Below are positions 9,143 through 50,141 of a stretch of 50,225 nucleotides of DNA, in pieces. The notes under the pieces were generated by a model that was given only the letters and a program-made list of their open reading frames with translations, made no database searches and was not told the origin of the DNA. Source of the stretch: Oscillospiraceae bacterium (GTDB lineage: Bacteria; Bacillota; Clostridia; Christensenellales; UBA1242); the NCBI GenBank assembly GCA_963636895.1, contig CAVHMC010000001.1:1-50225 (forward strand), written 5' to 3'. Both the position numbers and the translations under genes were made by a program. The stretch's first letter is position 1, and the number at the start of each line of letters is the position of its first letter.

Positions 9143-12100
9143 TTATTTTTTTGTTACAAAGATGACTATAACTCCCGGGTCGCTAGAGTTGACATTGTCT
9201 AAGTGAGATGAAACATTGATTTTACTCTTCTCTTCACTATCGCTAATATTTGTTATCTTGTAAACATAACTTAAATCGTTTGAACTGTCTTTTGTTATGT
9301 ATGCAAGCCCTATCTTTCCATTGACACCTTGCAAATTAAGTGTAGACAATTGGTCCAAATCTATCTCCACACCTGCAGGGTTATCTGCAGAATCTGGTGT
9401 AATAAGATTTTTATTCTTTCCGTCAACTGTAAAGGAGTATGTTCCGCCACCCATAACAAAGACCTTTTTGCAAAGCAATGTGCCACTGCTCCAATAGATA
9501 GAGTCAAAACCATTGTTTTGAGTCATATCCCCAGTATTATTGCTGTATATTAAAGTGTAATCTCCTTCTGCTTTTTCTTGTTGTCCCACAATAATTGCAT
9601 TGGAGTTACTTCCCGCAAAGCCATTGGTTTGGTCGTTTGTATATATTGACAAACTATCTTTCAAAAAGCTTCTATTCCTTGCAAGGCCAATAACTGCACC
9701 TGCTGAGAAATCTTTGTTGTCCGACCTTGTTGTAGTTGTAGCAAGCGAATAGCATGACGATATAGAACTATCCGCCCCATCAAGTATACCTACAATGCCA
9801 CCCACATAAGACCAAATTTGAATTGACGTAACTTCTCTCCCCGAAGAAACCCTTGGCTCGACATATCCTTCAACTTTGCAATCTTTTATGCTTCCATTTT
9901 GCATTGTCCCCACTATTCCACCCACCGAGTCAAATCTGTTGGAATAGGACTTTATTTGGGTAGACTTCTCTACTTGACAGGCTTTTATAGTCACCATATC
10001 GGCACCATATCCAAGCACACCACCGACGCAAACATTTGCAGTCGTAAGAGACGAAGTGGATAGCCCTGCAATCTTGGCGTCAACCGTTGCATACAAAATC
10101 GTCTCGGCTTGGTTGTCTACTGTTTCCACAGCATATCCCACAACACCACCAACGTATGCTCCGCCATCGGAAGAATATCCCAGCAAGTTTACACTACCTA
10201 TGCTACCTTCTGTAACCATATTTATCGTTTTTTCTTGTTCGTCTTCCGTTTGCTTGGTAACAGTAAATTTGTCAATGTCAGCCGTTTTCCCGCCATAGAC
10301 GCGTACGTTTTTTATCATAGAAGTCGTATCCGATGTTGTGTAATATCCCACTACACCGCCAACATATGAACCACCCGAAGTTGTAGCAGATATGCAACTT
10401 GACACAACCATATTCTTTATTGTTGTATTTTCCGCAAAACCAACAATTGAGCCCGAATAAGCACGTGCTTCTACTTGACTTGCATTGATTTTTATAAAAG
10501 TATCCATAAGGTAGCCATTGAGAATGATAGCATTTTGGGTGTAACCAAATAGACCTGAATAGGTATAATTGGAGTCTATTGTAATACCTTTTATAACATG
10601 CCCATTGAAATTAAAAACACCACAAAATGAGTTTGTTCTATCCTTTCCTATTGGAGAGAAATATCTTCCGCTAAAATCTAGGTCGTTGACAAGCATAAAC
10701 TCCATATTGGAAGTTATCAAAGTGCCATCGTTGACACTATTTGCAAGCCAGACCAAATCTTCTTCGCAAGTTATTAGATATACCTTGCTTACACTAGCCT
10801 TGCTTATGCTATCTTTTGCAAAATTTGCGAGTGTATCTTCAAATTTGCCCGATTGATATGTGCCGTCTTCATTATAAACATTTTTGACACTATCAATATA
10901 GTTGTACACCAATTTTTTATTGTTGCCACTGTCGTAATCAAAGCCAACAAGGGCTTCGCTTGGCGAGTTCTTCCACTCTCTATTTAGTCCGCTCAACGAT
11001 GGATAGGTTGCCACAGCAGATGGATTTAGACTGTATTCTTTTGCCCAAAGGTCTTCTTTCTTAAAGTTGTATCCTTCGCCCGAAACTAGATTTGCAAAAG
11101 TTGGCTGTGTTTGCCCTTTTGTGACAACATTTTGTTCGGAAATATAGTAAAGTGCTGGAGTGCCAAGTTCTTGACTTGAATTGTCATAGCCATACAACCT
11201 TGGAGAAAGGTTAAAGATATTTACAATTTCACTTGTGCTATCAATTTTGCCAATAACTACACCACCTTGATAATTTTGATTTTGAGCATTAGCCACAGTC
11301 ACAAGGCCATAATAATTGTTGTAGCAATTGTATACGTTGGAACTGACCACTTCGCCTACAAGTCCGCCTACCTTATAAGTTGACGAGTCGCCCGCTTGCA
11401 CGTAAACATTGTTGTAGCTGTTATACAAACCTTTTTGTGCGTCACCATTGTCCTTGCTATTTGATAATACACCTACAATTCCACCTACACTCACCGACGC
11501 TCTTATTTTACTTGGAGAAGACGAGAGATTTGCTTGTGAGCAATCTGTATAAAGTGAGACAAGCGAACTATTGGTTGCTTGTGCAACTATGCCACCTGCG
11601 TAAGAGACATCTTGCACAATAGGACTTTCTAGCCCCACATTCTTAATTGTTGCGTCTTTTACAACACCAAACAGCCCACCAAACTCGTCATCAAAACTTT
11701 CGTTGCCAATACTGTCGTAATATTTTGATTTGCCACTAACGGTCAAATTCTTTATCTCATAATATCTTCCGTCAAATGTGCCTTTAAATGGATTGCTACT
11801 TGTCCCAATAGGTGTAAAGTATTTATTAGATAAATCGATAGATTTTGTCAATTTTATTGTAATGCCTTTACTATCAATTTCTCCGCTATTTATTTTTCTT
11901 GCCATATATGCAAGTTCTTCGGCTGAAGACACAAGATAGGTCGATGTGGACGAGTCGATTTCTTTTGTATTGTCTACCCAATAAGATGTGTTTTGATTGT
12001 TTTTTAAGGTTGGGTACCAAGTCTCATGCTTAAAATTCCAAACTTTATCAAAATCAAGCACCCAAGTAGTAGTCTCCGTATCGGTTTTCTTTCTCATCTC

Positions 12101-15100
12101 ATAACTAGATTTAAGCTTCAAGTCAGAAGAAGAAAGTGCTTTTGAGAAGAAATACACGTCGCCATTATCTTTCCCTTTAAAGAAGTTGTCGTCAAAATTT
12201 TCTTGCACGCTCTTGTATTGCCCATCGCTAAAGCAAGTATATCCCGTATAGACTATATTGCTACTGTAGGCACAGCCTGCCAAATAGTAGTTGTTTAAGT
12301 CGAAAGACACTCTATCTTCTATCTTTGTTTCTTCCTTATAGTCTCCCTTTGCACTATTGTCCACAAAACAATAACTTATATCTCCCACAATTGCACCCAA
12401 AGCATTCCTACTTGGGACAATGTCGTAAATAATTACAAGACCAACGTTAATATTGTTTTGGATATACACATAAGAGGCGTCAAAAATCTTTGTGTTGTAT
12501 ACATAGCCCACAATTCCACCTTCGTAAACAGTGCTGGAATTGTTGCTAGAAATTGTTGCACTATTGTAGTTGTCTTTGACAAAAACTTGCCCAACAGATG
12601 TAGTCGCATTTTTGCCAAGGTCTATTGCACCCACAATTCCACCAATGCCAAATATTGACGAATTGGTCGACGAAGAAGAAATGTTGCCCGAATTGTAAGA
12701 TTGCTCCACTATTGGTGTATTTTCCTTATTTTTCAATCTACCTACCACACCACCAATTGAAATGTAAGAAAATGTTGAGGACAAGACTTCAAAATCTATG
12801 GAAGCCAAGTTGGACAAAAATTTAAGAGAGTTGTCCGCACGCCCCACGACACCACCCACATCAAACGATGCAAGGGAACTTTCCAAACTATCCTCTATAT
12901 CTTCTCTTGTTATGCTCCCTGTCGATTGGAAAGAGTTGGTGTCTTCCACCACGATTTGTCCATTGTTCTTTAAATTTGAAATTGAATGTTTAACTATATA
13001 TTCAATTTTGCTATCACCTATCGCACCGCCAATAAAAGCCTTGTGTGCATTGGTTTTAACTTCAATATTGCCCGTATTTTGTGCATAACCTATGGTACTA
13101 TTGGTTGCTTTACCCACAATACCCCCGACATACAAGTACACGATGCTATCACTATCCACATAACTATTATAGGTAGAGTTTACACTTATCTTGCCCGAAT
13201 TGGTTGCATAGTTGTCGGCATTTCCAGAAATCGTCGCCTTGTCAACTTTTCCCACCAAGCCACCTATATACAAGGTTGTATTTGTATTGCTTGTCAAGGA
13301 TACACCTGCATCGTTGGTGCAAGTTGTTAGTGACGAGCCCGCCAAGCTCTCATCGCTACTCACCATCTCGCCCACAATTCCGCCAGCAATTGACAAACCT
13401 ACAGCACTATTTCTATTGAAAATATTTGATATCGTGCTATCTATTGCCTTCCCCACAAGTCCGCCAGCAATTTTACCTACGACTTCTCCACCTAAAATAT
13501 TCAAATCAACTATTTCGGCATTTTTTATAACCCCAAACAAGCCCGCATAGTCTAGGTACTTTTGATGGTTGTTGTACTCTATTGTAACTGTGCCGTCTTG
13601 GTTGTTGTATGTTACTCCGCTAGAATTTTGGTTGACTGACACATATTGGATATTCATATTGTTGCCATTAAAGGTTCCTTCAAATGGACATTCTTCTGTA
13701 CCAATCGGTATCCAATATTTTCCACTTAAATCAATATCTGTCATTAGTATAAGGGTTTTGTCCTTGTAGGTATCTTTTCCGCTATTTACATCATTTGCCA
13801 CCTTTGCCAAGTCTTCTGCCGAATTGATATATGATATTGTGTCTTCGCTTGAGGCAAATTTGCTCCAAATATATGTCTCCGCAATTTCAAGGTTTGTTGG
13901 ATATTTTGTCGCGTCGTCAAAGTCGTCCGCATAGAAATAGTTGTCCATCGTCCAATAGCCATTGTCAAAAGCCTTGTAAATAACACCCTTGCTTGAGACC
14001 TTCAAGTTGTACACTCTTGCGGTTTGATTTATTTCGTATTTAGAAGAAAGATAAATTGATGCAACAGGTTTTTCGTATTGGTCAGAGTTTTGTTCCACGT
14101 AAGGAATATTGGTTATGGAATAGGTTAAGACGACTTCTTCTACGACATATTGCACCTTTGTACCATCGTCTACGACTTCTTTTTCCACATTAAATACAAG
14201 TTGGGTTATCTTGCTACCATTAGGAAGAAGTAGATTTGGTGTTGACTTATATTGTCCTCTAATATACTCGCTTGTGTCACCTTCCCCATTAATAACTTCC
14301 TTAATAGTCGTTATCTCACCCAAAGGAATTTGTATGCCGTTTATCAAGGCATATTTTTGTTTTAGTATGTCTCTGTAGTCATAGAAAGTATAACCATTTA
14401 GGCTCCCCACACTTACACCTGTAAAAGACATATCACAAGTTGAATTTGTGTAAGTCTTTGTGTCTTCAAAATTGGTTATAACTCGGTTGGAGAGATAATA
14501 AATCTTTGGATAATATTGTTCGCCACTTTCTGTCGTTCTTATATAAAAATTACTCCAATCTTCCTTTGTTTCTTCCGTATCTTGAATTTGTATGTATGTG
14601 CCAGCCTCGTGAGTATCGTTGAGAGTTGTGACTGTGACGCCATCAACTTGCTTGTAATAGACCACACCAAATCTCAACTTGTACCAATCAAAATCTTTTC
14701 TATTTTCATAACTCGTTGCCCAATTGCCACTTGCATCATAACTTATCTCGGTGTAAAGTTCGTCAGAGTTTTTAATTGCATTTGGTGTATTGCCAACAAA
14801 TTCGTAAATCATATCTACAACGACGTCACCTACTTGAGATTTTATCTTGTCTTGAGTGTTTGAACTAGACTTCATTGCATAACTGACAAGTGGGTCTTGC
14901 GCTTCATAGTAGAAATCTTGCACACTGTATGGGTAAACCATCTGCGTATCGCCATTTTTTAAGATATTTGTGGCAAAAGACTTGCTTTGCATTGCGTCAA
15001 TTTTTGGAGAATAGTAGGTCGAGTTGAGATATTTAAAGTCGCTACTTGACTTGTATAATTTATCCACAAAATAACTCTTGTTGCCGTACTTAATTGCTTG

Positions 15101-26077: not shown

Positions 26078-26128
26078 TTTTCCCTTTCCTATTTTCAAAC
26101 TTTTTGTGTCTTTTTTGTTTGTTTATCT

Positions 26129-26157
26129 TTACTACTTTTTGTTTTTAATTTTTTCAA
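26129..26157 (-). promoter_or_regulatory. weak candidate internal promoter between the two giant genes
   Basis: Minus strand reads TTGAAA (26157-26152), 17-nt spacer, TAGTAA (26134-26129). Weak -10. It lies about 50 nt upstream of the ATG at 26077. Confidence 0.25.
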
Positions 26158-44200: not shown

Positions 44201-47200
44201 TAAAATCGGACGATTTATTTTGAGCCGAGCAAGAGACGATATATTTGCTTACGTCCGTCACGTTGTACGCTTCGCTCTTTAAAACCAATTTCATTGAGTA
44301 CCAGAAAGTATTATCTCCGTCAACAGTTTCTTCTGGTTTTGTAAGAATTATTGAGAAAGGACTACTTACATTTTCATAAATAAAGGTATTTGCATCGTCG
44401 CCATATTTTCTTGCAACCATTTCACTAGCCTCGCTACTACCATCTTTTGCAATACTTATAGACAAATTTTGCACTGTGGTTGTTGTATTGCCCACGTAGA
44501 CATAGGCGTCAAAGGTTTTGGTGGTGTTTAGATAGCCAGATAGTCTAATCTCCGACATACTAAACCCAATTTCCACAACATTGACTTCGGCTTTAAGGAA
44601 AGAGACCCAGTTTTCACTTGTATAGCAGTAATCAGTATCGTCAATCGTAAACCTAACTGTAGCAACCAATTTATATGAGCCTTCTTTAACGAATTTTATT
44701 CGTTTTGACTCCTTTACAATATATTGAGTGTCGTTTGTTACGTCTTTATATTCGGCCGAAGTCTCCTTGTAATACAAGGTAAAATCAACCGCATAATTTG
44801 TATAATTAGAAATTTCTTCATTATTTTCGTCAACCAAAGCGTAATTGAAATTGACGAATTGATTGCTTGCAACCGATTTTTGATTAGAAGAGTAGTTATA
44901 ATCCCAATACGAGTCTTGCAAACTGCCGTTTTGAGAAAGCAAAAGTTTGTCAAAATCTTCCACCACCACGACCGTAATTTCGCCACAAATATTGGAACTT
45001 TCCTTCAAAGCGAACTTGAGAGTCTCCACCCCCACTTTTAGTAACTCCAATTCGCCAGAATCTGTCACTCTCGCAACACCATTTGACGTAAGAGTGCTAA
45101 CGACAAGGTTGATATTTGTCACCGAACTTGTCGTTGTAACACTAAATATATCGGCAAGATTGTAAAATCTTGAATTCTCCCCATAGGTTAGAATAATTAC
45201 CTTCTTATCGCCATTTTCGTAATGATAATAGTTTTGTCCAAAGACAATTTGGTTGTTCGCACTCACTTCTCCGCCGAGACCTACAACCGAAATGTCTGAT
45301 GGAATATCTGCGAGCAAACTTGTATGCTTTTTGATAATTACAGAGTTATCTCCGTCATAATACTCAATCAAAATATTTGGAGTGGCATCTTCTTTTGGAG
45401 AAGTAGCATCGCCCACAAATCTTTTTTCTAATATATTGGTATTATTTAAAGTACCATATTTAAGTAGATAATAATATTTTGTACCGCTTACACCCAAAAG
45501 GTCCAACTCGCTAGCACTTGCACTAAAGTCAACCGACACTACACCGATATAGAAGACGTCATTAAGTAAAGTTATCACATGCGCACTTGCATTTTCCGTA
45601 TTTCCGCCAACAAGCCCCTTTACATAAGAAGAATTTTTAAGAGATATAATGTTGAAAGTTGAAAAAACGTTGCTAAGGTTTATATTTGTCCCGTCACCCA
45701 CAAGTCCGCCTGCATGAGCCTCGTCTCCATAAATAAATATGTCGCCCTTTGAAACATACAATTGATTTGATTTTGAAGTAAAACCATACGAATAGGAATT
45801 TTGCAACAATAACAATTCAGCATAACCCACAACACCGCCAACATAATCGTTCCCCACTATCATAGGAGAATATCCACCATCAGAATACAAATCGTGATTT
45901 TCCACTCTTGCATTAAAGATATTTGCCAAGTCAGTGGAAGTTCCGTTTTCTGCAGACGCATAACCTACCACGCCACCGACATAGTTGTTGCCAGCAACCT
46001 TTATTGAAGTTAAAATATTAGAAATTTTTGCATTTTTGGTTAAAAGTTTTCCAGCCACGCCACCGACATTATTACATGTAAACGTATTTGACTTGTTGGT
46101 TGAAGTGTTAAAACTGCCAATATTGCCTTCTATTGCAAAGTTTGAAATTGTGCCATAATTTACACCCGCAATGCCACCGATAGCGGATTCTTCATTTGTA
46201 ATCGCCCCGCCCCTAACATTGATATATGCAACGACATCAACATCTCTTTGATTATAACTTATAAAGTTGACTTTCGAAGACGATTGTGTACTAGCCTTGT
46301 AATTGCCGTCTATTGTGCCCTTGTTTTCACCCACAAGTCCGCCCACATAAGACGTCTCGCTAGACGTAACTACAATTGATGTGCCCGTCGAATAGGTCGT
46401 CGAAGTGTAATCTTTTTCTTTATCACTAAAATAATTTAAATTTGAAAAATATTTTGTATTTCTTGCTTCGTCGTTGTCAGAAGACAAATCTACACCATAG
46501 CACAAAATTGTGCCATTGTTTTGCCCCGCAAAAGAGCCTAGTTTGACATCGCTTTTAGTCTTTGATTCTATAGTAATATATTCAACTACTACATTTATAA
46601 TAAAACCATTATTAATACCAGCAACTATACCCACATTGCTTACTTGATTGTTGCTATTTATAGAGATAGTAGCATTTTTTATTTTCAAATTGTACACAGC
46701 ACCATAGGTCTTATCATTTTTTGCAATTTCGCTAAACAAGCCCACCTTGCCGTCTACTGCACTGGATAAACTTAGCCCATCTATAGTATAACCATTGCCA
46801 TTAAGCACACCTGAAAAACTGCTTATTGGGGTCCATGCATAGTTACCACCTAAAGAGATATCGTTTACCAATTGATAATTCTTGGTTGGGGCATTTGAGA
46901 TAGCACTCAATTGAGAAGCAGTCTTGATAGAATACGCTTGTTTCTCACCATCTTCCACAACAACTCTTATTTTTTTGTAAACTTTGTAGGTCGTATTTGA
47001 AACGTAACTATCTTTTGCGATAAGGACAAGATAGAAAATTCCACCGTCTTTAACGGCAAGATTGAAAGTTTCTTCTCCCGCCAAATCTAAAGAATATCCA
47101 CTAGTTGTGCCTTTTGAGAGTGTAGCGTATTTGTTTGCTGTATCCTTTTCGTCACTTTCACCATTTGTTATGTATGCAAAAAGGCTCTTGTCTCTAATTG

Positions 47201-50141
47201 TTTCATTTGCTATTTTCCCAGTCAACACAGCGTTTAGGTTAATAGTCGAATTGTCGTGCACTCTTATTTCGTCATAACTAGACTTTTCCGCAACGTCGAC
47301 CTTTGTTGTAACATTGTCCACCACCGTTGTAGCATTGATGCCAATACTTTTTACTTGGTTAGCCTTTGTTACAACAATTTTGCAATCAATAGGGCTTTGA
47401 TAAAGACCAAACTCGTCGATATGCACTTTGATAAATATCGTTGCTTCGTCCTTGTATTCTCCAAGAGACACCGTCCCTTTAAGGATATCTCCATAAACGG
47501 TGTAGTTGTTGAAACTATTATTATCCAAAGTTATGTATGATATATCAGATTGGTTTACCAAAACAAACTTTATTCTACTTGCCATTTCATTATAAAGCGT
47601 CGAACTTGTATTGCCAAACTCTATCTTAAACTCAAAGGTCGCGGTCGCATTGTCTCGCAAATTGTAAGGAACAGAGTCCACATCATAAATTCTTGCTTCC
47701 TTTTGTCTTAAACTAACGTTCCCTGGGATAAAAACGTTGAGAGTAAAGGTCAAGGTTGCAGTTTTTACTCTCCAGCCAATATAATTATTTGACATTTGGA
47801 AAAAGTCATAATATTTGACAGTAGCGCTTATCGTCGTTGTACCTTGTTCGTTGGCTGTGATTATGCCATTTTTAATTGAAGCAATATCACTTTTTTCCGA
47901 AGTGTATTCTACATCTCCCAAGATTTTGCCATTGCCTTCAAGAGACAAACTCAATTTGCCACCTTTTACCACACTTGCGCAAGGATTTGTCTCGTCGTTT
48001 ATATCATTCTCCGTAAGTTTTGTCTCATTGTTTACTTTTTCCAATTTCAAACTATTACGTACCATTTGAAAGCCAACAACCACAACGTTGATAGAATTTG
48101 ATATGCCGTTTGGTGCGGTAAACGTGATAGTTGTTTTGCCGACAGCCAATCCGCTAACTTGCAAAACCCCACCCAACTTAAGATTGTTGTTTATTCCATC
48201 AAAATAACTACTTGCATTGGCTAAAGCCTTTATCTCGACGATATTGCTACCACTTGCGAACTTTATATTGTCACTCAAATTGTTGTCATAGAAATATGCC
48301 ACAAGAGACCCAGACGTGTTGCCCGCTTCCAAAACGAGCTCGTTGTAACTCGTTTTATCTTTTTCCGTCAAATTGTAGAAAGTGGAACTGCCATTTTCCA
48401 CAATAACCGTTGACGCAACAATTGTTGTCACACCTTTTTTGGTCTCAAACGAAATGGTCTTCTTTTGTCCACTCAAGCCATTGTTATCACTTGATGGCGA
48501 GACGGTGTTTCCATTTGCAAGTTTTAACTCAGAATTTACGATATTTTCAAAAACAAAACTAAATTTATTGCTATCACTGCTATCACTAATTTTGTCTGAG
48601 ACTGCCTTTGCATAAAATGTCCTTTCGTCTTCCTTTGAAATATCGCGGTCAAAATAATATTTGCCTTCACTTGATGTAACACTAATTGGTTTACCATTTG
48701 TATCGGTAAAAACAAAGTATTCACTTAAATTTGAAGTCACCACGTCACTTACAATTTGCACACGAACAGTCCTATCACATTCTGGCGACTTAGACATATC
48801 CCCAAGGTCAATGTCAAATCTTGTGCCCTTATCATTGGAATAGCTATCATAAACAACTGAAGAATTGTTCTCAATATTTTTGCCATCTTGCAAAACTTTG
48901 ACACTTGTCGCAAGAGAGTAAACGTTGACTGTAAAATCTTTTACGTCGTTCAAAGTTGTATCCGAATTGGCATCTTTGTACTCTCCCAGCAAATCGCTAA
49001 AGAGATATTCCACGTCATTTGTAAAATTAAACTTGATTTTAAAGTCAAGGTGAGCCACTCCCGTATTTTTCGCCCCAAAAACAAATGTTGCAGAATTTTC
49101 TTCGTTTTGTTGCTCTCTTTTTTCAATTATGCTGTCAAACAAAGGCTCTATTGTAATAGATTCTTGAGAGTTAACAGCCACTTTAATTTGTTCAAGCGAA
49201 TAAGAGTAAGATGCCGTCCCGACCTTGTACTCAGCACCCGGATATGTAAAAAGCACAAAATCAAATTTATTGTTTTGTCCCATCACATTAAAGGAAGTTT
49301 GATTACTCGAGACTGAAATATCGTTATAGGTAAGTGGAGCAACAATATTTATTGAAGTGCTTGCCTTTAATTTTTGGTTTGCTTCACTATCGTCATTTTC
49401 AACATACTTGCTTGACTTTGCGGTAACGTTTACCTTGCCAGATAAACTTGTGTCTAAAACGATAAGAGAATATTTGCCGGTCGTCTCGTTTTTCTCAATC
49501 TCAAAACATGGCTTGTCTGAGACATAGTAGACGCCATCTTCTACCTTGCTAAAAGTTGAAATTGCTCCATCACTATCCACATAGGAATCTAGGGAGAAGT
49601 CGACTTGCTTTTCGCTTTCTTCAAATTCAAAAGCACTACTATATGAACTCGCAAATTGAAGGTTGTCCGTAAGACTGATAGATTGTCCAGCCAATACACC
49701 AAGGTTGTCTGAAGACACAAAGGAAATCTCGGTAACAGGGAGAAGAACCTTAAAATACAAGTCAAGAGACCCACGATTGAGAACCTCAATAGACGAAACC
49801 GTCAACTTAAAAGTTTGCGAACCCGAAGGACTAGATGCACTCACTTCGGCAGACGTGTCAGAGATATTCTTAGCGGTTAGCGAATCTGACGAATTAAACT
49901 GTAGCCTTTTTGAGGCAACAGCGTCAGAGTTGACTTTTGCCGAGACAATAAAATTCTCACCATACATAACTTGATAGCAATTACTCTCGCTATCATAAGA
50001 CAACGCCTCACCTGTCGACTTGTTGACGACAGAAACCAACTCGACTTTTAGATTTGCATACTTATCACCACCACCGCAAGCAAACAAAGCACCCGACAAG
50101 GAAAGCATAAAAATTGCCAAAAACAAAAACACCTTTTTCAT
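26268..50141 (-). CDS. giant surface lipoprotein, 7,957 aa, Ig-like stalks plus GLUG-like beta-helix modules and a C-terminal repeat region of about 2,870 aa
   Basis: Uninterrupted 23,874-nt ORF. ATG at 50139-50141 is preceded by AAGGAG (50152-50157) with a 10-nt spacer. N-terminus MKKVFLFLAIFMLSLSGALFAC. Big_2-like motifs GLAVGKTTITFTAPNG and ANEQGTTTISATV. Dozens of GG[LIVF]VG / NxGxIxN[SC]Y repeats. TAA stop at 26268-26270. Confidence 0.9.
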   Translation of the reverse strand: MKKVFLFLAIFMLSLSGALFACGGGDKYANLKVELVSVVNKSTGEALSYDSESNCYQVMYGENFIVSAKVNSDAVASKRLQFNSSDSLTAKNISDTSAEVSASSPSGSQTFKLTVSSIEVLNRGSLDLYFKVLLPVTEISFVSSDNLGVLAGQSISLTDNLQFASSYSSAFEFEESEKQVDFSLDSYVDSDGAISTFSKVEDGVYYVSDKPCFEIEKNETTGKYSLIVLDTSLSGKVNVTAKSSKYVENDDSEANQKLKASTSINIVAPLTYNDISVSSNQTSFNVMGQNNKFDFVLFTYPGAEYKVGTASYSYSLEQIKVAVNSQESITIEPLFDSIIEKREQQNEENSATFVFGAKNTGVAHLDFKIKFNFTNDVEYLFSDLLGEYKDANSDTTLNDVKDFTVNVYSLATSVKVLQDGKNIENNSSVVYDSYSNDKGTRFDIDLGDMSKSPECDRTVRVQIVSDVVTSNLSEYFVFTDTNGKPISVTSSEGKYYFDRDISKEDERTFYAKAVSDKISDSSDSNKFSFVFENIVNSELKLANGNTVSPSSDNNGLSGQKKTISFETKKGVTTIVASTVIVENGSSTFYNLTEKDKTSYNELVLEAGNTSGSLVAYFYDNNLSDNIKFASGSNIVEIKALANASSYFDGINNNLKLGGVLQVSGLAVGKTTITFTAPNGISNSINVVVVGFQMVRNSLKLEKVNNETKLTENDINDETNPCASVVKGGKLSLSLEGNGKILGDVEYTSEKSDIASIKNGIITANEQGTTTISATVKYYDFFQMSNNYIGWRVKTATLTFTLNVFIPGNVSLRQKEARIYDVDSVPYNLRDNATATFEFKIEFGNTSSTLYNEMASRIKFVLVNQSDISYITLDNNSFNNYTVYGDILKGTVSLGEYKDEATIFIKVHIDEFGLYQSPIDCKIVVTKANQVKSIGINATTVVDNVTTKVDVAEKSSYDEIRVHDNSTINLNAVLTGKIANETIRDKSLFAYITNGESDEKDTANKYATLSKGTTSGYSLDLAGEETFNLAVKDGGIFYLVLIAKDSYVSNTTYKVYKKIRVVVEDGEKQAYSIKTASQLSAISNAPTKNYQLVNDISLGGNYAWTPISSFSGVLNGNGYTIDGLSLSSAVDGKVGLFSEIAKNDKTYGAVYNLKIKNATISINSNNQVSNVGIVAGINNGFIINVVVEYITIESKTKSDVKLGSFAGQNNGTILCYGVDLSSDNDEARNTKYFSNLNYFSDKEKDYTSTTYSTGTSIVVTSSETSYVGGLVGENKGTIDGNYKASTQSSSKVNFISYNQRDVDVVAYINVRGGAITNEESAIGGIAGVNYGTISNFAIEGNIGSFNTSTNKSNTFTCNNVGGVAGKLLTKNAKISNILTSIKVAGNNYVGGVVGYASAENGTSTDLANIFNARVENHDLYSDGGYSPMIVGNDYVGGVVGYAELLLLQNSYSYGFTSKSNQLYVSKGDIFIYGDEAHAGGLVGDGTNINLSNVFSTFNIISLKNSSYVKGLVGGNTENASAHVITLLNDVFYIGVVSVDFSASASELDLLGVSGTKYYYLLKYGTLNNTNILEKRFVGDATSPKEDATPNILIEYYDGDNSVIIKKHTSLLADIPSDISVVGLGGEVSANNQIVFGQNYYHYENGDKKVIILTYGENSRFYNLADIFSVTTTSSVTNINLVVSTLTSNGVARVTDSGELELLKVGVETLKFALKESSNICGEITVVVVEDFDKLLLSQNGSLQDSYWDYNYSSNQKSVASNQFVNFNYALVDENNEEISNYTNYAVDFTLYYKETSAEYKDVTNDTQYIVKESKRIKFVKEGSYKLVATVRFTIDDTDYCYTSENWVSFLKAEVNVVEIGFSMSEIRLSGYLNTTKTFDAYVYVGNTTTTVQNLSISIAKDGSSEASEMVARKYGDDANTFIYENVSSPFSIILTKPEETVDGDNTFWYSMKLVLKSEAYNVTDVSKYIVSCSAQNKSSDFTVVVSPSELSSIEYSYYTYTKEASKLVKASEPNEGSTTFYSYVTNASSTLVSGMGGLLVVDLVPYYANEMSVTIESSVKGSKELSFVQLLKVNGDKGDNNSYYIAGPSTTTNADGSVNLQLVSTLKDAYLDYKTGILHGDAYSYSFGEDGGVGRLYIRVVAPSSLEAGDSIDIIVKVSYMGFTSSSGKYAERKSTTTIPLRVVEAPTATLTISHDGTSRNIIAYTATGIENEETTADYLAITPKVQTGYKYYLSYNYISGGKEKGESSDYATLENGLLKLGKNAKVGDTIKIRLTVEISTGDDVINQVLEQTVTVVDAVVTKVSINGLDDNNVFNMTISSSKQLQVSLEGYGTKSSLSAIEKNISRAVLANKYSSLSDNADIPYYWFIENPTIDGEYRNLNVASELNNVPFSVKQLSATADSDTFVATADLLGASGSTINYTIDYNTIYLEGLINAGSANLRMKFSYVYNEGKLQLIPLDESLTSIYVAKIDFTVNVVAGDDETDLIAVSTQEEFMKMANAQNGQGNYILVNDLTLDTYSPIDANFASFDGNNKVITINSFYLPDSRTTQSVNFGLFGKISSSSIVKNVIVALPNSKTGVGGTSNTQQYMTQLNSYTTINYGGLAGVNEGIITNCDVIATTSTVSNGYVINAYTNNTVSRDSINVGGFVGTNSGIITNSRVGRKDVYVLKTSYIGSVVATKEKLSDVTNFTMALYGAGNVGGFVATNSGTISSSYADNLQIEVFSSANGTQNIRTAGFVVNNTGYIYGSYASGIEENDAQNVNSRKLGGGIFSNGCASGFVFSNTNYIADCYSNINLTGSYDYAIKTARVNDSSANSLPGVAGFVYIKGETSYIKTSYSLSKISNKNTYGPFESTIASPGDNSSKKQLGTIENCYYLLEDGQGEELYTKDERAQKLSDNAIVDGVSTSSARSGVNQFTLTDSFNGFSFDPEIEDLSLSSGNGSGGVWAIRMEKDGINGYPDLVSANTIAISSRIKNTTKSSGGDVTVYFTYVVDYELGSLNNPYIISTAEQYNKIFREYKNNLQLENSSSKYVFNVRLINNIDFNNDNIESTTVEFTSITGQTAIFDGNYLAMTNINLNDNASNSYAFGLFKDIYRAGVKNLTLGVTNISATDTTAVGALAGVIVDSNISNVTLVPSSNQEGLVFGKNYVGALAGIITSSDPNSRSSVDKDKLYYVSNIYSTLSIKGNTDKNSATLVKDFSIWSKIAPLTQSGNLRLSGLKSDTCSYAGGIAGVVDLRQETLTSSTAVISKEVVHNVHVGEFKKNSKNITDTSFNKDVAIISNYVGGLFGLIGSQTMVARSEFIVGSGSLLSAKLVAGGVAGFNYGMVNKTYVSYNKTYDQSMEKALKEYVEGGSSRGQININLYNDSTDATPTYIGGLVGINAGSSVNGSGSIIDSYNRVDVRNSHATAVGGIVGGSYVGELRNVYTNASLLGDTTNKDTKIGGIIGKIFDNPIDGLFESITSGNKTLTLSNIVALNIYEKTDFDDLYAFVNDENTAGKKGKLGALYGEYTNADASKGQGIVRIEQSSKVYFNQYALRQFDATELNKGKDETFVSSTYPQNNLIELWGTAKSGANYDEYLSGYLEGEVYYLIQPHQLYRFIQNETDDGTFLRDKYFGPLKWSRDVWSYNEEQVLPTLQYGMQTNVRRIYTAEEFMEEVSSSNNAEMTYLIMNDLDFSTVGDITPISKTFGGRIVGNTIEYTDTDGNKYSRYPILFNLKFNVDNSEVTSYALFEHASNATFSNFSIVVDSYKVTFKNGLDASTKASVLVALAEGVTVSNVSIYSSLMGMVSKYPSNVKEHEITKGTRTVTTEKTSTTFVGETAFLVTRYKQAKTVNSTEIDETRVYTYNNSKFTIASVVSNYEGGTPTDTSKIASITTAVSQVETNAEYFGGLMASTGESSVVIQSCSTNLDVKITTTQKSNSIYYGTLVGEGNGKIRNSVAMGENGTKIYITSDYQSDSESYKDAENLYVGGVAGYFKGEIEGVYVDNLTIKVGNDSKAFIVNNPNTNSTGGAYIGGLVGTASSYSASKSYTSGNIDNVYIDNISIETNVKGQLTVGGAVGRNIASIENVFIRNRAKVVGSAFDARIVANVDNNGSKTIIGGVVGDNTSSSLNNVYSNLPIKVNAISFASLYVGGIIGQTSSTMSLTNILSDAKEIRIEKTTDKDGYSSLGYLVVGGVVASATSLELRTVLTAVDIVASQEGQMYIGGAVGYADSLAITNVIVLGNILLLRGKGVDSNSYFYNDDSFVYCVGGLVGSIQKSFNVLSDSGNQSNLILSTIRDYAVGQKLVTYESSVIGGKHSDVNFSGSLARVYFNENISLVSNDNITNATCEPNSVDSFSSIGQGVELKNLLNDMLNVDFNATSNSLDFIKYVEGTETIFFNNYRSGSSTTEFVVGSKINPVSYAGGSLLQDTYYVLNSDLYLDNTISTSISETIDGETVVSSYAGWVLNCQGYSINIGKNSSKQTSVFDTITENSAVVGLLVDITSNFASESAVITKNNYGFIFSCGVSGSTEKSGDAPSSIASIAYNNYGVIARTFSTADLYSDAGYGLVVFNGKVDNAGLVGNIYDSYYTGAIIDGAKTSGSYFGGIAYKSVYGVISNSYTMADIEAYQSKSIYPIVCNNLKDEKEQKANLYRTYYDYIAYTGDFEGTDSTGTVWTKCIADVEDNNASYITAGGIYAWTTTFSGDVELKNSYIKKTNITNVSDKTVVLSAVTKTILDLFQTSWVGQANKQILVDTFNTKVYTSEQVAERNNVSLNLDNTWFNYGYVSKDLKRVYADENTTKYFTMIYTGNGRNNKENLESPNPTSTIDGFVDMPYNIKHGGLLDMLVTENCLQDELNYRHYLFTRNISLKKYKKLTYWSESWDTYDAMFIGDLDGGNKLVSDMFATYGLVRAIPNESLSTKDGKVTRVRDIVFNGCYSKTGLVAGYIASGEITGIKVADKYDVANVSPNYVYNGDLFSTLAEGHNGTLETYTSQMNADAKKILQNPITSIKLNDKIEGEADDGKSFANNRVNLSLSLTNGKAIFAGGLVGFMEGGLISNVEIDGLNVMAYNRITERKNLNNSLDGTTAGDKIYNDDITYIGGIVGIMTGGTITTNDPNSDTDDTRSVDESGDEVTTNINNYGDIIFKKMIVAPSFDDQYYLQPFSYVGGVVGYIGGSKQTPIIDGVSLKTTNKSSEGEQEKNKISLYGIMNLGGIAGISNGSALIKNCTYDLNDSKGEQNKFRLGYGNWEYEDSVKLVYSDLSDEIVDHDKWEENVISNTSKDKEIEYNWHEVTFFVQDVYLGGIVGSIYKGTLENCSFGTNANVDVDVKKLSGYGTIIFGGIAGEMYQDDDMGEINITNSSIYGDMTIKSSLETIVGGVVGRMRGGILQQFAIGQSGKDSIIKASASDVNKSGNLDLSATLPDYKNSNIANAFNKYIETVTKEWKDASSAKEYPKALYSAFTQLSNMSGEDYWSVKGSAIATAGISRFAQYSSVGGVVGKLLKGDLEGTNSTFGRVNVISNESAGGVVGRVYQSASSYGVTIKDFTLPKTINVYAGGIVSFTIGGKAVFESEVSSVLSYDSLTKYFANTDGLVNLSGSELYVWLGLGLSKSSAGGVVGTVNYLLNNTSDKEFVRIENCSTNGGVGSAFATYSGGIVGLVSETTSTNTHTVITGCTASAILRGYILKSFAGGIVGYLNHGTVYNCTFAGSFGNLFSNLGQIFSSNSDDASTVVSFLSKLADVVLGVPNISGGIVGYCEMGEVRASNTKSFTNTSGGFSFDISLIIGYRVAGGIVGVATGGLFTPQKWKDNVVGGEAEFGVMSNNGIVYSLAGISGGLFGVVCGGNDTQIVGYQIPDYSISEAVVKIIASIVNSFDEKNEATFFDLLKEKLGLSDDTGLLINNYFGIVMGQIAGGIVGYFDTNSVDKTYLSGCFNFGRVYTNLMSMFTAFSVMKSMTSMSTNLSDTTKLDNTQAIITFMAKLSKSGYASDGVLSEWFNKIDMGFDEIDEMLTTIDDAFTFSASLGAGILIDGKKYPIVDIGLSANGSLLNIDLGGLTDADIVSNIEFYDDVISAISGITVYKYHHDPYWKPTSFIYDSSKKNQAEVISYGLTRAEKMICKIVQEEPSETEEKLKEEKSLGLIVFNDYYPDGATASNGEVIWQEPTDKGFGASGGIVGMTHGSGKLVISLSMGYTLTLPSVLSAVASSVVFSNGMAGGIVGLADSPLLVTSTFNYLNVVGRVAGGIVGYANKEVTVSSYRENPTLVGEFKELMTTIMQEMLCKDKEGTTKTSKVKYGPVMNSGIVNGSIFAGGIYGYSNGGKINTKEMEEFFFREHTLGLYAEGNWNENEFEVSWDDALSFSIEGLGDLSIFTVTNSGSVISDRFAGGIAGYVEGDSAFYNAKVTASWLSSLGDTSSLFNTKLSDIADSIINKPAIHISAPYAGGIVGHLGSGVIGGSCSAGYSSSFGVKFVDNILEWFNNVKDIRISAYFYSTESIIPTEVLTDSSKKEYFDNLRKNYNAGGYAGGVVGLMTGGQLGTKFENSNQSIAVTVLKSIKFGYNDSFTVPYVGGAIGCYAVPESKTNVGGSIGGVSVKTTVSNGFFTGGLLGRLLGNDSKDSFTFGLGTSSTPYIVGQVNEYNKSGELQTEDSDRLIIEAKTGTICGGIIGYLCNGNLSNIISSVKVEGQKGTTVGGVVGWLNGGTITNCVATQLKVEELEYKVEEKKENSDSSSETSSVSFATATANSDDTTKKVSKLTVDWDTKDKDGNPVYLFEVSNSTIDNEEALEKASSALTNSIKGDADEEYIKQNFFDNGKLITARLFADSYVGGIAGRISSNSTYGNSTYIKKCAMYADIYGGTNVGGIVGHVLGKVDVQECYSFGDIIRAGNAGGIVGVAQTHKSGRTANLRSESPVISSVYVGREILVEDTLLKTGGVFLAKLAYGDDATLVSEKLFNFDTTNKILSMFDETLVVFAFGDVDTDNINTNTIKEYFEDNLTTISGSMSVGGFVGVLDGYSTLESGKAGIGVQVKTEIDSKNKLETAKQMIYAVYGNKESVSTIARLCGEDNVAGIGAVGGSVGIAKDHAQIGMDATTTSSFWSKVEKTLQKMGVGLSQKSEDGYLQSAGIVNGWTAGGLVGKMMDDATVLSGTTGLYVRGEIYAGGAIGSMIGGEISGISNYSIFNVETNGVFALDGTTLKLIDNVTGDGTEGDADEDGGTDFISELVKDGVLKTSLGGVVGYYNGEGNIKYIGARPLTDTTTSGFSPMPVFGLGLNIALSVVSDKYYAGGIIGHLENGNFTNATITNLSIGAVAGNISYAGSIIGRVSGTSTIEINVKEFDKLFDFSTLLVQAIKGAGDVIGAVTKGESETTVTLKIDQGLGANVTALMVGGAVGAVLDGAELKLESSFKAVSTLNGTVIGGVAGYVAGTLNGSDKIVTAKEKIFDGKNNTIGGVVGLVGAGGTVKDVTNEIKIVAGHKATVGGIAGEMAGGTIENCINNANLTLKRVFKEGTDDTQEISATPGASNPWNGTEKTDTTNAKKLGDDNKTLKTVASYKEFCDEGYDEGSIGGIVGSAVTESALDIAMDINVSDVADLLSKRGSVIRKSENKAQVYGYYYYGRDTVGEDGEGDGSVEEHSFGEDDKAYINHIADKRGTLAGSVSAIYGSIKVAQSEDGKTKIVPVLEFKDCDLPENKGIGGLADLFDDEEVDDENTDTEYNSGIDYKKLGNFIVDLLTVSKSEIKDKLVEKLKDYANVVPEYADDWVERNKEAKEKKQEEQKAYMIGYYVQAKTVTTNDKGETTTTYKTYCRLKPSTTNEIEAVSDVKTMLNSSGYTKASFPADRSAPSSSNALITYTKIKAVVKESLKNTEAGIYQLEIPTDYQEKSMGSFTDGDTTYTVTGITFNLNTASIVIGDTYNELQACGGDIQMSRNALSKKGFTSELGVKTLLYKFLYHLNDEWITIVELLNQDFKINGQLV
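26271..27099 (-). other. ORF2 unique C-terminal domain, about 275 aa (approximate)
   Basis: Acidic stretch DDEEVDDENTDTEY, then a charged helix-like stretch EKLKDYANVVPEYADDWVERNKEAKEKKQEEQK, then a non-repetitive domain ending ...WITIVELLNQDFKINGQLV. No GGxVG. Confidence 0.45.
27100..35710 (-). other. ORF2 C-terminal super-region of irregular GG[IV]VG rungs (approximate)
   Basis: Starts at DMPYNIKHGGLLDMLVTEN...FIGDLDGGNKLVSDM. Continues with FAGGLVGFMEGGLISNV, YIGGIVGIMTGG, YVGGVVGYIGG, LGGIAGISNGSALIKNC, YLGGIVGSIYKGTLENC and many more, down to SIGGIVGSAV (about 27483-27510) and GIGGLADLF (about 27100). Confidence 0.55.
35720..36960 (-). other. ORF2 module 5, degenerate (approximate)
   Basis: Starts near INPVSYAGGSLLQDTYYVLNSDLYLD. 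The NNYG[FV]I and SNSY parts of the rung are kept, but the GGxVG part is mostly lost. Confidence 0.35.
37200..39205 (-). other. ORF2 module 4 (approximate)
   Basis: Cap IYTAEEFMEEVSSSNNAEMTYLIMNDLDFSTVGDITPISKTFGGRIVGN. Rungs FGGLMASTGES, VGGVAGYFKGEIEG, IGGLVGTASS, VGGAVGRNIASIEN, IGGVVGDNTSS, VGGIIGQTSS. Confidence 0.55.
39225..41160 (-). other. ORF2 module 3 (approximate)
   Basis: Cap NPYIISTAEQYNKIF...VRLINNIDFNNDNI...AIFDGNYLAMTNI. Rungs VGALAGVIV, VGALAGIITS, AGGIAGVVD, VGGLFGLIGS, AGGVAGFNYGMVNKTY, IGGLVGINAGS. Closes with DVWSYNEEQVLPTLQYG. Confidence 0.6.
41255..42700 (-). other. ORF2 module 2 (approximate)
   Basis: Cap STQEEFMKMANAQNGQGNYILVNDLTLDTYSPIDANFASFDGNNKVI. Rungs YGGLAGVNEGIITNC, VGGFVGTNSGIITNS, VGGFVATNSGTISSS. 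Closes with GGVWAIRMEKDGINGYPDLVS. Confidence 0.65.
42701..45429 (-). other. ORF2 internal Ig-like stalk (approximate)
   Basis: About 910 aa without GGxVG. Big_2-like motif GVARVTDSGELELLKVGVETLKFALKESSNICGEITVVVV. Confidence 0.4.
45430..46945 (-). other. ORF2 module 1 (approximate)
   Basis: Cap YSIKTASQLSAISNAPTKNYQLVNDISLGGNYAWTPISSFSGVLNGNGYTIDGL, located at 46765-46945. Rungs VGGLVGENKGTIDGN, IGGIAGVNYGTISNF, VGGVAGKLL, VGGVVGYASA, VGGVVGYAEL, AGGLVGDGTN. Confidence 0.65.
46946..50075 (-). other. ORF2 N-terminal Ig-like stalk (approximate)
   Basis: About 1,040 aa without GGxVG. Recurrent Big_2-like strand motifs: SGKVNVTAKSSK, GLAVGKTTITFTAPNGISNSINVVVV, IITANEQGTTTISATV. Confidence 0.45.
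50076..50141 (-). other. lipoprotein signal peptide with lipobox-like L-F-A-C (Cys22)
   Basis: MKK + VFLFLAIFMLSLSGAL + FAC. Phe at position -2 is atypical for a lipobox. The mature protein starts CGGGDKYANLKV, paralogous to ORF1 CGDKYDNLKF. Confidence 0.65.

Follow-up and report, generated by a model that had tools for sequence, protein, structure and literature searches.

The window, i.e. the whole stretch of 50,225 bases of DNA analysed here, is dominated by two giant genes, A and B, that are real, intact and under purifying selection and, judged by their sequences, belong to a large family of lipoproteins of 3–8 kaa that lacks an annotation. The explanation considered here as the best one, with a probability of about 60%, is that both genes are translated into lipid-anchored, extended surface fibres, which would serve as adhesins and/or as a coat.

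Both giant open reading frames (ORFs) are co-directional and together fill 81% of the window (41 kb), directly upstream of rpoBC, as the first-pass annotation had described, but they lie on the minus strand (A 26268–50141; B 9143–26077). Gene A starts with ATG, runs through one stop-free frame of 7,957 aa and is identical in sequence to P0022 of a public protein collection. Concerning gene B, the full ORF (9143–26098) reaches back to a TTG at 26098; translation plausibly starts at the ATG at 26077, located behind a GGAAAGGG ribosome-binding site and giving a protein of 5,644 aa, which is also the length of the B product stored in the public protein collection. The A–B spacer (26078–26267, minus strand) is A-rich and that between B and rpoB (8664–9142, minus strand) exhibits promoter-like sites, no terminator-like site being present in either of them. 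The conserved downstream neighbours, rpoB (4914–8663; NCBIfam rpoB equivalog, 1,535 bits) and rpoC (1216–4812), occupy positions 1216–8663 of the same strand. Besides these four genes, the window contains one small ORF; it harbours no dedicated secretion gene, as had been claimed before, and neither Rfam families nor tRNAs were detected in it.

The ORFs might be an artefact of assembly or pseudogenes in decay, left open through chance or mis-assembled repeats; this deserves consideration because the contig is metagenome-derived, giant repetitive genes often mis-assemble, and the contigs of two close relatives (L003 and L010) break just upstream of rpoB. Chance is ruled out, however, since 178–626 stops per gene interrupt each of the remaining five reading frames, the longest open stretch there being 221 codons. 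Assembly collapse, against which the first-pass annotation had cautioned, is rejected because the 41 kb are free of DNA repeats above 60 nt. Moreover, independent assemblies (ENA, Logan and NCBI) contain orthologues of equal length, more than 1,500 codons have been kept open at the same locus in 45 genomes, and the dN/dS ratio of the rpoB-adjacent orthologue is 0.10–0.15 (unsaturated pairs) versus 0.02–0.05 for rpoB. An artefact is thus regarded as already refuted, and the two ORFs are genuinely coding, as had been supposed. The codon usage of A and B resembles that of rpoBC (RSCU correlation r = 0.83–0.86), and recent horizontal transfer has also been rejected due to this native usage.

The two proteins are collinear, with 24–36% identity over roughly the first 3,500 residues, and cannot be aligned after that, so that their earlier designation as paralogues applies to the former part and not to the remainder. 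The full-length orthologues of A are P0031 (7,963 aa, 48% identity, 100% coverage), P0034 (7,993 aa), P0025 and P0043, and those of B are P0096 (5,583 aa, the same length in at least five assemblies), P0121 and P0163; the profile of the conserved core module retrieves as many as 1,528 cluster representatives at E ≤ 1e-30. A word-index homology search gave nothing with a two-sequence N-terminal profile and one match with the C-terminal 1,200 aa of A, which reflects the sensitivity of the index rather than an orphan status, since the exhaustive HMMER scan found relatives. As far as the claim of an undescribed system is concerned, no paper describing the family has been found in the literature; the pair is, however, not unique, its family being already present, albeit unnamed, in public databases.

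It should be pointed out that the B orthologues are only 33–45% identical where rpoB is 85–89% identical, their C-terminal tips being the least conserved. In a similar way, the C-terminal (distal) domain of A (residues 7561–7957; 26271–27461, minus strand) is its least conserved part, sharing 27–29% identity with P0020, P0031 and P0034 and being unalignable in more distant orthologues, with the protein end and the stop position conserved in P0020. This divergence suggests that A and B may evolve in the manner of surface-exposed proteins. With regard to the genomic neighbourhood, 45 of the 63 genomes of related species have a family member that ends 170–680 nt upstream of rpoB, a placement that persists even where rpoB has diverged to 61% identity, and collinear B orthologues are found upstream of rpoB in 16/16 close relatives. 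An insertion between rplJL and rpoB was considered and rejected, no rplJL being present upstream of rpoB in the relatives inspected; SipW/TasA-like genes, suspected upstream of rpoB in relatives without the giant gene, obtained no support from Pfam.

Both proteins start, as proposed in the first-pass annotation, with a signal peptide and a lipobox, i.e. MKKVFLFLAIFMLSLSGALFA preceding Cys22 in A (50076–50141, minus strand) and MKKFIRTFLAVIFAICCFGLIG preceding Cys23 in B (26009–26077, minus strand). They conform to the PROSITE PS51257-type rule—a positive n-region, an uncharged h-region, the lipobox [LIVMFWSTAG]2-[LIVMFYSTAGCQ]-[AGS]-C and the cysteine at position 15–35—and the same applies to 111 of 143 large family representatives, in which the conserved motif C-G-x-x-Y-x-N-[LM] then follows. 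Predicted lipoprotein signals are, at the level of sequence, a hallmark of this giant-protein family. The AF2 model places a helix at residues 2–22 of A. The signal peptide is the sole hydrophobic segment in each of the two proteins, and LPXTG is absent anywhere in A and B, in agreement with the earlier reading; a sortase anchor, which would be accompanied by a second hydrophobic segment, is thus not recognised in either of them.

The signal peptide of A is followed by about ten predicted Ig-like/β-sandwich domains, the putative stalk (residues ~30–1065; 46947–50054, minus strand), assigned by AF2 and Foldseek. The model of the N-terminus, based on a 7-sequence alignment (pLDDT 79.7, pTM 0.46), is all-β with units of ~100 aa, i.e. 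the domains are modelled as beads on a string, and the Foldseek search with it returned 278 PDB matches at E ≤ 1e-3, all of them multi-Ig arrays, including the Ig-like domains of bacterial S-layer proteins, α2-macroglobulin and PrgB. A PDB profile search with the N-terminus gave weak Big_2-like matches only, and Pfam recognises just one of the ~10 domains, the Big_2 (PF02368) match at residues 742–776 (47814–47918, minus strand), with 27.0 bits against the cutoff of 22.8 in an 800-aa tile and 18.8 bits when scanned within a 4,000-aa piece. In B, the N-terminal region homologous to the Ig-like stalk of A (24% identity) covers residues 24–1170 (22568–26008, minus strand) and is devoid of GGxxG motifs.

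Beyond the stalk, A consists of several segments, all on the minus strand. The first cap and GLUG β-helix module (residues 1068–~1560; 45462–46940), with cap HMM 70.8 bits at 1070–1142 and Glug 23.2 bits, aligns with B 1354–1615. The subsequent rung-free region (1561–2484; 42690–45461), without GGxxG and without a Pfam match, is probably composed of β-sandwich domains, the AF2 model having β-strands at 2401–2485, i.e. in its last ~85 residues. The conserved core β-helix module (2485–2975; 41217–42689; Glug 22.5 bits), delimited by alignments, AF2 and Foldseek, contains the cap YILVNDLTL..FDGNN, the rungs GG[LF][AV]..N.G.I[TS]N[CS] and the end GVW..YP[DE]LV. A third cap and β-helix module (3001–3560; 39462–41141; cap HMM 65.7 bits, Glug 23.6 bits), lying within the AF2 model and aligning with B 3171–3567, precedes a fourth cap with a rung region (3645–~4300; 37242–39209), with cap HMM 76.3 bits at 3649–3741 and GGxxG at 4016–4252. 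The long GGxxG-rich region (~4870–7560; 27462–35534), in which every 250 aa contain 3–5 GGxxG motifs, most often spaced 31–45 aa apart, and Glug is at or near the cutoff in three tiles, is likewise predicted from its motifs to be β-helical.

In B, also on the minus strand, the first cap and GLUG module (residues 1175–1620; 21218–22555; Glug 27.3 bits) was recognised by the cap HMM, and the conserved core β-helix module (2575–3005; 17063–18355) scores 412 bits against the module profile and is 33% identical to the core of A. A further cap and β-helix module (3175–3800; 14678–16555; cap HMM 71.1 bits) is succeeded by three more cap and GLUG modules with a variable C-terminus (4083–5644; 9146–13831), their caps being positioned at 4083, 4714 and 5100 with cap HMM 82 bits each, the internal repeats sharing 27–38% identity and Glug reaching 34.2 and 44.5 bits.

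The assignment of the modules to the GLUG-type β-helix, already made from the sequence alone, agrees with both structural and profile evidence. The AF2 model of A 2401–3500 (pLDDT 72.7, pTM 0.80) retrieved by Foldseek, among the matches listed (E ≤ 1), right-handed β-helices only, comprising the IgA1 protease β-helix (probability 1.00) as well as the L. reuteri SRRP adhesin and Ag43; the models of the two regions of A, recommended in the first-pass annotation, thus show the predicted Ig-like and β-helix folds. PF07581 (GLUG) exceeds the Pfam gathering cutoff of 20.5 bits in seven tiles of A and B (23.2, 22.3, 23.6 and 23.1 bits in A; 27.3, 34.2 and 44.5 bits in B) and matches 6 of 12 core modules of the family. 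The tiled scan, likewise recommended, brings both Big_2 and GLUG above their thresholds, whereas Glug attains only 18–22 bits if pieces of 3–4 kaa are scanned; the whole-piece searches of Pfam, NCBIfam and PDB sequences are nearly empty, so that tiling was needed for above-threshold matches. A PDB profile search with the core module gave antibody noise only and no sequence-level PDB match. Concerning the rung motifs proposed previously, GG[LIV]VG is found 34 times in A and 20 times in B, but the literal NxGxIxN[CS]Y has no match in the two proteins, its looser version being detected by the strict rung HMM only in the core module (A 2600–2780, B 2691–2783). For the broader motif of the GGxxG type, A has 62 copies against 2.6 expected and B has 34 against 0.9, which is a 24- to 38-fold enrichment, and the GGxxG triads are invariant across both the A- and B-type orthologues.

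With these features, A and B, regarded as translated genes of an uncultured gut bacterium from the Christensenellales-like Clostridia, would yield products exported by Sec, and the cysteine of the lipobox (Cys22 or Cys23) would be modified by diacylglycerol with subsequent cleavage, so that each protein would remain anchored by its N-terminus on the outside of the cytoplasmic membrane. The ~ten Ig-like domains would form a flexible stalk, long enough to span the wall; beyond it, successive capped right-handed β-helix modules of the GLUG type would act as stiff rods, with β-rich segments in between, and the least conserved C-terminus would be the distal tip. It is the lipid tether, Ig stalk, rod modules and distal tip taken together that lead to the proposal of long fibres. 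The pair would thus provide lipid-anchored surface fibres of two lengths, for which the first-pass annotation gave a rough estimate in the 100-nm range. Their role may be attachment, with glycans, particles, host mucus or partner cells as targets, and/or the formation of a fibrous coat around the cell. We infer lipidation, extension, surface exposure and an adhesin or coat function, as well as, from motifs, the folds of A ~4870–7560 and of B.

The coat half of this proposal is favoured because a gene kept beside rpoBC in 45 of the 63 species resembles a core envelope component more than a usual accessory adhesin. If emphasised exclusively, it becomes a possible though not probable alternative, in which the proteins are not adhesins but abundant, constitutive components of a fibrous barrier of the S-layer kind, protecting the cell from phage, bile or host immunity without a specific ligand; such a reading overlaps the preferred one and differs from it in emphasis only. 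It draws on the rpoB-adjacent position itself, maintained over the above-mentioned rpoB divergence, on purifying selection, on the lack of a terminator-like site between A, B and rpoB, and on the resemblance of the stalk fold, as seen by fold searching, to Sap, EA1 and SbsB, which are S-layer proteins. SLH or another wall-binding module is, however, absent, the size of 3–8 kaa far exceeds that of known S-layer proteins, and the fast-evolving tips would fit a ligand or immune interplay equally well. A more far-reaching version, rather doubtful at present, is that the family may be the principal and essential surface organelle of uncultured gut Clostridia throughout an order-level clade that carries it immediately upstream of rpoBC, i.e. 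a lipoprotein fibre layer replacing the sortase-/S-layer-type display and perhaps mediating the attachment to other cells or partners on which these organisms depend, as exemplified by Christensenella, which is reported to form flocs with methanogens (PMC7002349).

It speaks against an adhesin or coat that β-helix folds are common in polysaccharide lyases and that the lowest E-values obtained with the core model in Foldseek belong to PL6 alginate lyases and pectate lyases, the former at the top; for a host living in the gut, the β-helix modules could therefore be imagined as surface-displayed PL6/PL1/GH28-like lyases or hydrolases of multi-catalytic carbohydrate-active enzymes degrading dietary or host glycans. 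This is nevertheless unlikely: the TM-scores are low (0.11–0.17), corresponding to the generic β-helix fold only, no Pfam lyase, hydrolase or Beta_helix family and no NCBIfam family of the PL1, PL6 or GH28 type was seen at E ≤ 0.1 in any tile, and there is no NCBIfam or PDB sequence match, which is in accordance with the first-pass annotation, where no obvious catalytic motif was seen. GLUG is the sole signal of a family, and its only relative with a solved structure, the β-helix of the IgA1 protease, is a non-catalytic gating domain (PMC7695701). Even less can be said for contact-dependent antagonism, i.e. a CdiA/FHA-like β-helical stick delivering a variable C-terminal toxin, despite the very long β-helical rods and the least conserved C-termini; it has been rejected because of the absence of an immunity gene, A being followed by B and B by rpoB with no small immunity-like gene after either ORF. 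In addition, the C-termini diverge gradually and collinearly instead of being swapped, no toxin, TPS or pre-toxin Pfam domain was found, and the N-terminal lipid anchor argues against release. The lipid-anchored fibre with an adhesin and/or coat role thus remains the preferred reading.

Among known systems, the classical giant adhesins of Gram-positives and Gram-negatives (Ebh, SiiE and LapA/BapA types) are, like A and B, multi-kiloresidue, modular, β-rich fibres with Ig-like repeats; they are retained by a C-terminal TM segment, LPXTG or T1SS and have many near-identical repeats, whereas in A and B the lipid anchor is N-terminal and the DNA is strongly diverged and free of such repetition. 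The serine-rich repeat adhesins of gut Gram-positives share the right-handed β-solenoid (L. reuteri SRRP binding region, PDB 5NY0), but only at the level of fold (E 0.24), since A and B possess neither Ser-rich tracts (serine content 10.7–10.8%, no tandem repeats) nor LPXTG, and there are no aSec genes in the window. The only solved GLUG (PF07581) example is the N-terminal β-helix of the IgA1 metalloprotease from Streptococcus pneumoniae (PDB 6XJA/6XJB; PMC7695701), a Gram-positive surface protein likened to A and B by the seven GLUG tiles and the probability of 1.00 for the core model; it differs in having one short β-helix (~270 aa) with an M26 protease and in being LPXTG/G5-associated, compared with at least 4–6 capped modules in each of A and B, which lack a protease domain, use a lipoprotein anchor and are 3–4 times larger. 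The Giant1–5 proteins of the Bacillota gut symbiont Apilactobacillus kunkeei, encoded by tandem co-directional genes, are extracellular proteins of 3,000–8,000 aa that, like A and B, combine a β-solenoid with elements of the Ig type, evolve fast and are inferred to function in adhesion, the length of Giant3 being estimated at ~0.2 µm (PMC12863079). They have, however, Sec/SPI signals, mostly α-helical repeat rods with one N-terminal β-solenoid, and C-terminal DUF5776/SH3b-like wall-binding domains (PMC12863079), whereas A and B have lipoboxes, are all-β where modelled, contain many β-helix modules and no DUF5776, and exhibit no detectable homology to them. Finally, very large predicted proteins of uncultured bacteria have been surveyed in metagenomes, including those of 10–30 kaa in mammalian-gut Clostridia (West-Roberts et al. 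2023, bioRxiv 10.1101/2023.11.21.568195; ‘neglected giants’, PMC11573180); these clostridial giants are RCC1, Listeria-Bacteroides-repeat, YG-repeat or dockerin proteins, unlike A and B, and the words ‘GLUG’ and ‘lipoprotein’ are absent from the text of both surveys. A and B join the already known giant bacterial surface proteins, the new points being the unannotated family and its rpoB adjacency.

Although the guts of humans and animals commonly harbour Christensenellales-like Clostridia, most of these bacteria are uncultured, with next to nothing described of their cell surface. The family marks a blind spot in that standard whole-protein scans are near-empty and thresholds are passed only on tiling; since such scans miss it and short-read assemblies often break at the locus, it is unnamed in every source checked. 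If the proposal is true, the N-terminal lipid anchor would be added to the known ways of giant-fibre display of the Gram-positive type, i.e. LPXTG, SLH and wall-binding repeats. Should the genome be small, the 41 kb of the A–B pair would account for ~3% of it. Given its size, the purifying selection acting on it and its fixed place beside the RNA polymerase genes in most of the relatives examined, the family is probably a major determinant of the contact with host, phage and partner microbes.

Gene A, occupying positions 26268–50141 of the minus strand, is a single open frame of 7,957 aa beginning with ATG, with just 84 nt between that start and the end of the window. Gene B lies on the same strand and is open at 9143–26098 when read from a TTG, its likely start being the ATG at 26077, since this codon is preceded by GGAAAGGG and the public protein collection stores the same length of 5,644 aa. 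According to that collection, the window is an entire NCBI contig of 50,225 bp. It is followed, again on the minus strand, by rpoB (4914–8663; NCBIfam equivalog, 1,535 bits) and rpoC (1216–4812). A pattern scan, yielding consensus matches only, revealed promoter-like sites upstream of rpoB and no terminator-like site in the A–B and B–rpoB spacers. The former spacer (26099–26267), extremely A-rich on the coding strand with A6–A7 runs and an imperfect 23-nt tandem repeat (26112–26170), also lacks a strong promoter-like site. The region 3' of rpoC (1–1215) is low in GC (33% over 1–2000); its sole ORF (127–516, minus strand; 129 aa) has no match in Pfam and NCBIfam, and rpsL/rpsG are absent downstream of rpoC within the window. 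The plus-strand ORFs of 160–196 aa opposite the giant genes (15845–16435, 32002–32484 and 34653–35228) occupy the antisense frame poorest in stops and are most likely spurious.

Chance openness of A and B is excluded, since the five other frames of the same DNA contain 178–626 stops per gene, the longest open run being 221 codons. Repeat collapse or expansion is of no concern—the first-pass annotation had named collapsed repeats as refuting its proposal—because the modular repetition is confined to the protein level, the 41 kb of both genes being free of notable tandem repeats and of direct repeats exceeding 60 nt at an identity above 80%. In RSCU, A and B correlate with each other at r = 0.97 and with rpoBC at 0.83–0.86, the latter match marking both genes as native to this genome. 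When 1.84 billion cluster representatives were scanned exhaustively with HMMER, full-length orthologues emerged for both A—P0031 (7,963 aa, 48% identity, 100% coverage), P0034 (7,993 aa), P0025 (7,689 aa) and P0043 (7,808 aa)—and B, i.e. P0096 (5,583 aa), P0121 (5,651 aa) and P0163 (5,805 aa); P0096 recurs with an identical length of 5,583 aa in no fewer than five independent assemblies (ENA, Logan, NCBI). In the contigs L083 and L084 of two relatives, coming from unrelated assemblies, a gene of 5,629 or 5,639 aa directly follows the A orthologue. Concerning selection, dN/dS was determined for three pairs of closely related species in which dS is unsaturated; it is 0.10–0.15 for the rpoB-adjacent giant ORF vs 0.02–0.05 for rpoB, which indicates that purifying selection acts on a protein that is itself fast-evolving. 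On the stops, codon usage, orthologues and dN/dS, the two giant frames are thus genuine, and their being an artefact is exceedingly improbable.

The divergence is considerable, B orthologues being only 33–45% identical at an rpoB identity of 85–89%, and conservation is lowest in the last ~400 residues of both A and B, where no family is recognisable. In the closest species pair (L008 and L013), dS of the giant ORF is 0.23, i.e. about four times the 0.06 of rpoB; this excess could stem from recombination at the giant gene or an exchange of its alleles, or just from tighter codon constraint on rpoB.

Searched with a profile of the core module—the conserved β-helix module at residues 2485–2975 of A and 2575–3005 of B—the cluster representatives yielded 22,148 matches at E ≤ 1e-3, of which 1,528 reach E ≤ 1e-30. 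Among the best 148 matches (A and B excluded), 141 are 2,800–8,000 aa long; the module typically lies at residues ~2,100–3,300, and about 80% of the best matches start with a lipoprotein signal followed by the conserved C-G-[NKDE]-[KDP]-Y-x-N-[LM]-x-[LI]. No member of this giant family is named in any source checked. The locus was compared in 63 species-representative genomes nearest by rpoB (61–89% identity) for which 5 kb or more of sequence upstream of it is available: 45 carry a giant-family open frame of at least 1,500 aa that ends 170–680 nt upstream of rpoB (16/16 at ≥75% rpoB identity, 29/47 at 61–68%), the member in distant clades being a complete lipoprotein of 2.9–3.2 kaa. The B-type gene is therefore ancient and fixed in position, and the 8-kaa A-type paralogue characterises the clade of the window, in which the gene order is spoIIID-A-B-rpoB-rpoC (L083, L084). 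The closest rpoB genes (GTDB, one genome per species) come from MAGs recorded from human, mouse, chicken, goat, deer, rabbit and buffalo guts.

Several details of the relatives deserve mention. Upstream of the A orthologue, L083 and L084 (both 1–10000) share pth, mfd and genes for a 572–574-aa protein with no Pfam match, an LPG_synthase_TM protein, a 155–238-aa protein, a Peptidase_M23 protein, an acyl-carrier-like protein and SpoIIID. In L004 (1–1868), its rpoB being 96% identical to that of the window, homology ends ~250 nt upstream of rpoB, and in place of the giant gene there are two ORFs, one for a P-loop (guanylate-kinase-like) protein of 187 aa and one for an HTH protein of 80 aa; either sister species differ in whether they possess the giant gene, or the short-read contig is chimeric. 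The giant gene is also missing 5' of rpoB in L044 (6689–9781) and L023 (8692–9639), which encode there proteins of 195–315 aa with N-terminal signal peptides, preceded in L044 by two membrane proteins of 347–463 aa; a suspected SipW/TasA-like arrangement found no support in Pfam. In L047 (7011–10000; rpoB 86%) the B-type ORF ends 2,989 nt upstream of rpoB vs the usual 170–680 nt, pointing to an insertion between them. The more distant L001 (1–14134) carries three consecutive co-directional giant-family genes (5,392, 1,778 and 1,377 aa) adjoining pgm and hrcA-grpE-dnaK-dnaJ, so that either family members are present at loci other than that of rpoB as well, or frameshifts have broken up a single giant gene. 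None of the relatives inspected showed rplJ-rplL upstream of rpoB.

Both proteins are acidic, with the signal peptide as their sole hydrophobic segment. The Sec/lipobox signal ascribed to each ORF is borne out by the PS51257-type rule, to which MKKVFLFLAIFMLSLSGALFA followed by C22 in A and MKKFIRTFLAVIFAICCFGLIG followed by C23 in B conform; as also claimed earlier, neither protein contains LPXTG. The AlphaFold2 model of A 1–1070, based on a seven-orthologue alignment (pLDDT 79.7, pTM 0.46), consists of the signal helix and an all-β chain in which some ten units of ~100 residues follow one another. The 278 PDB entries matched to this model by Foldseek at E ≤ 1e-3 are all multi-Ig/β-sandwich arrays, including Nup210, bacterial α2-macroglobulins, contactins, the GhpA base, the PrgB Ig-like domains and the S-layer proteins Sap, EA1 and SbsB. 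Together with Big_2 at A 742–776 (27.0 bits vs a cutoff of 22.8, once the protein was tiled), these results corroborate the proposed Ig-like stalk.

Beyond the stalk, module starts are defined by the cap motif …Y.L.NDI.L……PI……F.G.FDGN……I.NL…GLF, found at residues 1070, 2489, 3004 and 3649 of A and 1175, 2579, 3177, 4083, 4714 and 5100 of B. The AlphaFold2 model of A 2401–3500 from 16 sequences (pLDDT 72.7, pTM 0.80) shows a short-strand solenoid periodicity, and all E ≤ 1 matches among the 50 PDB rows listed by Foldseek are right-handed parallel β-helices, such as PL6 alginate lyases, pectate lyases, tailspikes, L. reuteri SRRP, Ag43 and, with a probability of 1.00, the pneumococcal IgA1 protease, whose β-helix is a non-catalytic gating domain (PMC7695701). 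The cutoff of GLUG (PF07581), 20.5 bits, is exceeded by four A tiles, the last one (7201–7957) among them, and by three B tiles, one of which gave the top score of 44.5 bits. The GLUG-type β-helix modules of the first-pass annotation thus hold; its NxGxIxN[CS]Y rungs do so in a looser form and only in the core module, the rungs elsewhere being marked by GGxxG. A contains 62 copies of this motif and B 34 (expected 2.6 and 0.9), none of them within the first 1,250 residues; they are dense in A 5000–7600 and have a modal spacing of 31–45 residues. For A ~4870–7560 and all of B, the fold is predicted from motifs and homology. It should be noted that the Big_2 and GLUG scores fall below the gathering cutoffs in 3–4 kaa pieces and rise above them in 570–800-aa tiles, which probably explains the near-absent precomputed annotation of the family. 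The two proteins are paralogous, as proposed, over roughly their first 3,500 residues, where they are collinear (N-termini 24% identical; A 1258–1500 aligning with B 1354–1615; A 2464–3455 vs B 2550–3567 at 26–36% identity); their C-terminal halves are not alignable.

Based on the signal motif, the modelled stalk and core folds and the fast evolution, greatest at the tips, a fibre model is proposed. A and B would be exported by Sec and lipidated by Lgt/LspA at the lipobox Cys, the N-terminus staying in the outer leaflet of the cytoplasmic membrane; the Ig-like stalk would span the wall, the capped GLUG β-helices would project outwards as rods, and the variable C-terminus would form the distal tip. 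If each Ig domain contributes ~4 nm and each rung (~25–40 residues) ~0.48 nm, an extended A would roughly reach the 100-nm range, in agreement with the earlier figure. The lipid-anchored architecture with Ig-like stalk and GLUG β-helix rods is held with high confidence; for the function, i.e. attachment and/or a fibrous coat provided by fibres that come in two lengths, the odds are about even, and the reading as a whole is given a probability of about 0.6. The initial observation is confirmed and its structural interpretation supported, the function being a reasoned hypothesis.

Differing from these attachment or coat fibres mainly in emphasis, a structural envelope role is favoured somewhat by the core-gene-like conservation beside rpoBC, and is regarded as possible, albeit rather unlikely. 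Enzyme arrays are disfavoured as improbable, and toxin-delivery filaments still more so: the tiled Pfam scan of A and B found no catalytic, toxin, secretion or wall-binding family at E ≤ 0.1 anywhere, in accordance with the lack of an obvious catalytic motif noticed before, and NCBIfam and PDB sequence searches with the giant proteins gave no match.

The individual parts—lipobox, Big_2/Ig-like domains, GLUG β-helix—are already known, and giant modular bacterial surface proteins are an established category, the A/B pair being one instance of a large existing family. Among the nearest analogues, the Giant1-5 cluster of Apilactobacillus kunkeei also comprises tandem extracellular proteins of 3–8 kaa with a β-solenoid, but, unlike A and B, with SPI signals, α-helical rods and SH3b-like C-terminal anchors (PMC12863079); the others are the SRRP adhesins and the GLUG β-helix of the IgA1 protease. 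A and B belong to none of these families, membership tests having placed them outside Giant1-5 and the SRRP adhesins. They stand apart in four respects: a lipid anchor at the N-terminus of proteins this large, the high number of capped and diverged GLUG modules, a family that is both large and coherent, and its fixed place upstream of rpoBC. The statement that this is not a described system agrees with the searchable full-text literature on giant proteins, GLUG and Christensenellales surface proteins or lipoproteins (subscription-only sources excluded), in which no account of the family was found; the words "GLUG" and "lipoprotein" are both absent from two giant-protein surveys (bioRxiv 10.1101/2023.11.21.568195; PMC11573180). 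The interest of the giant family lies in its being uncharacterised and abundant in gut Clostridia, and in its conserved position beside rpoBC.
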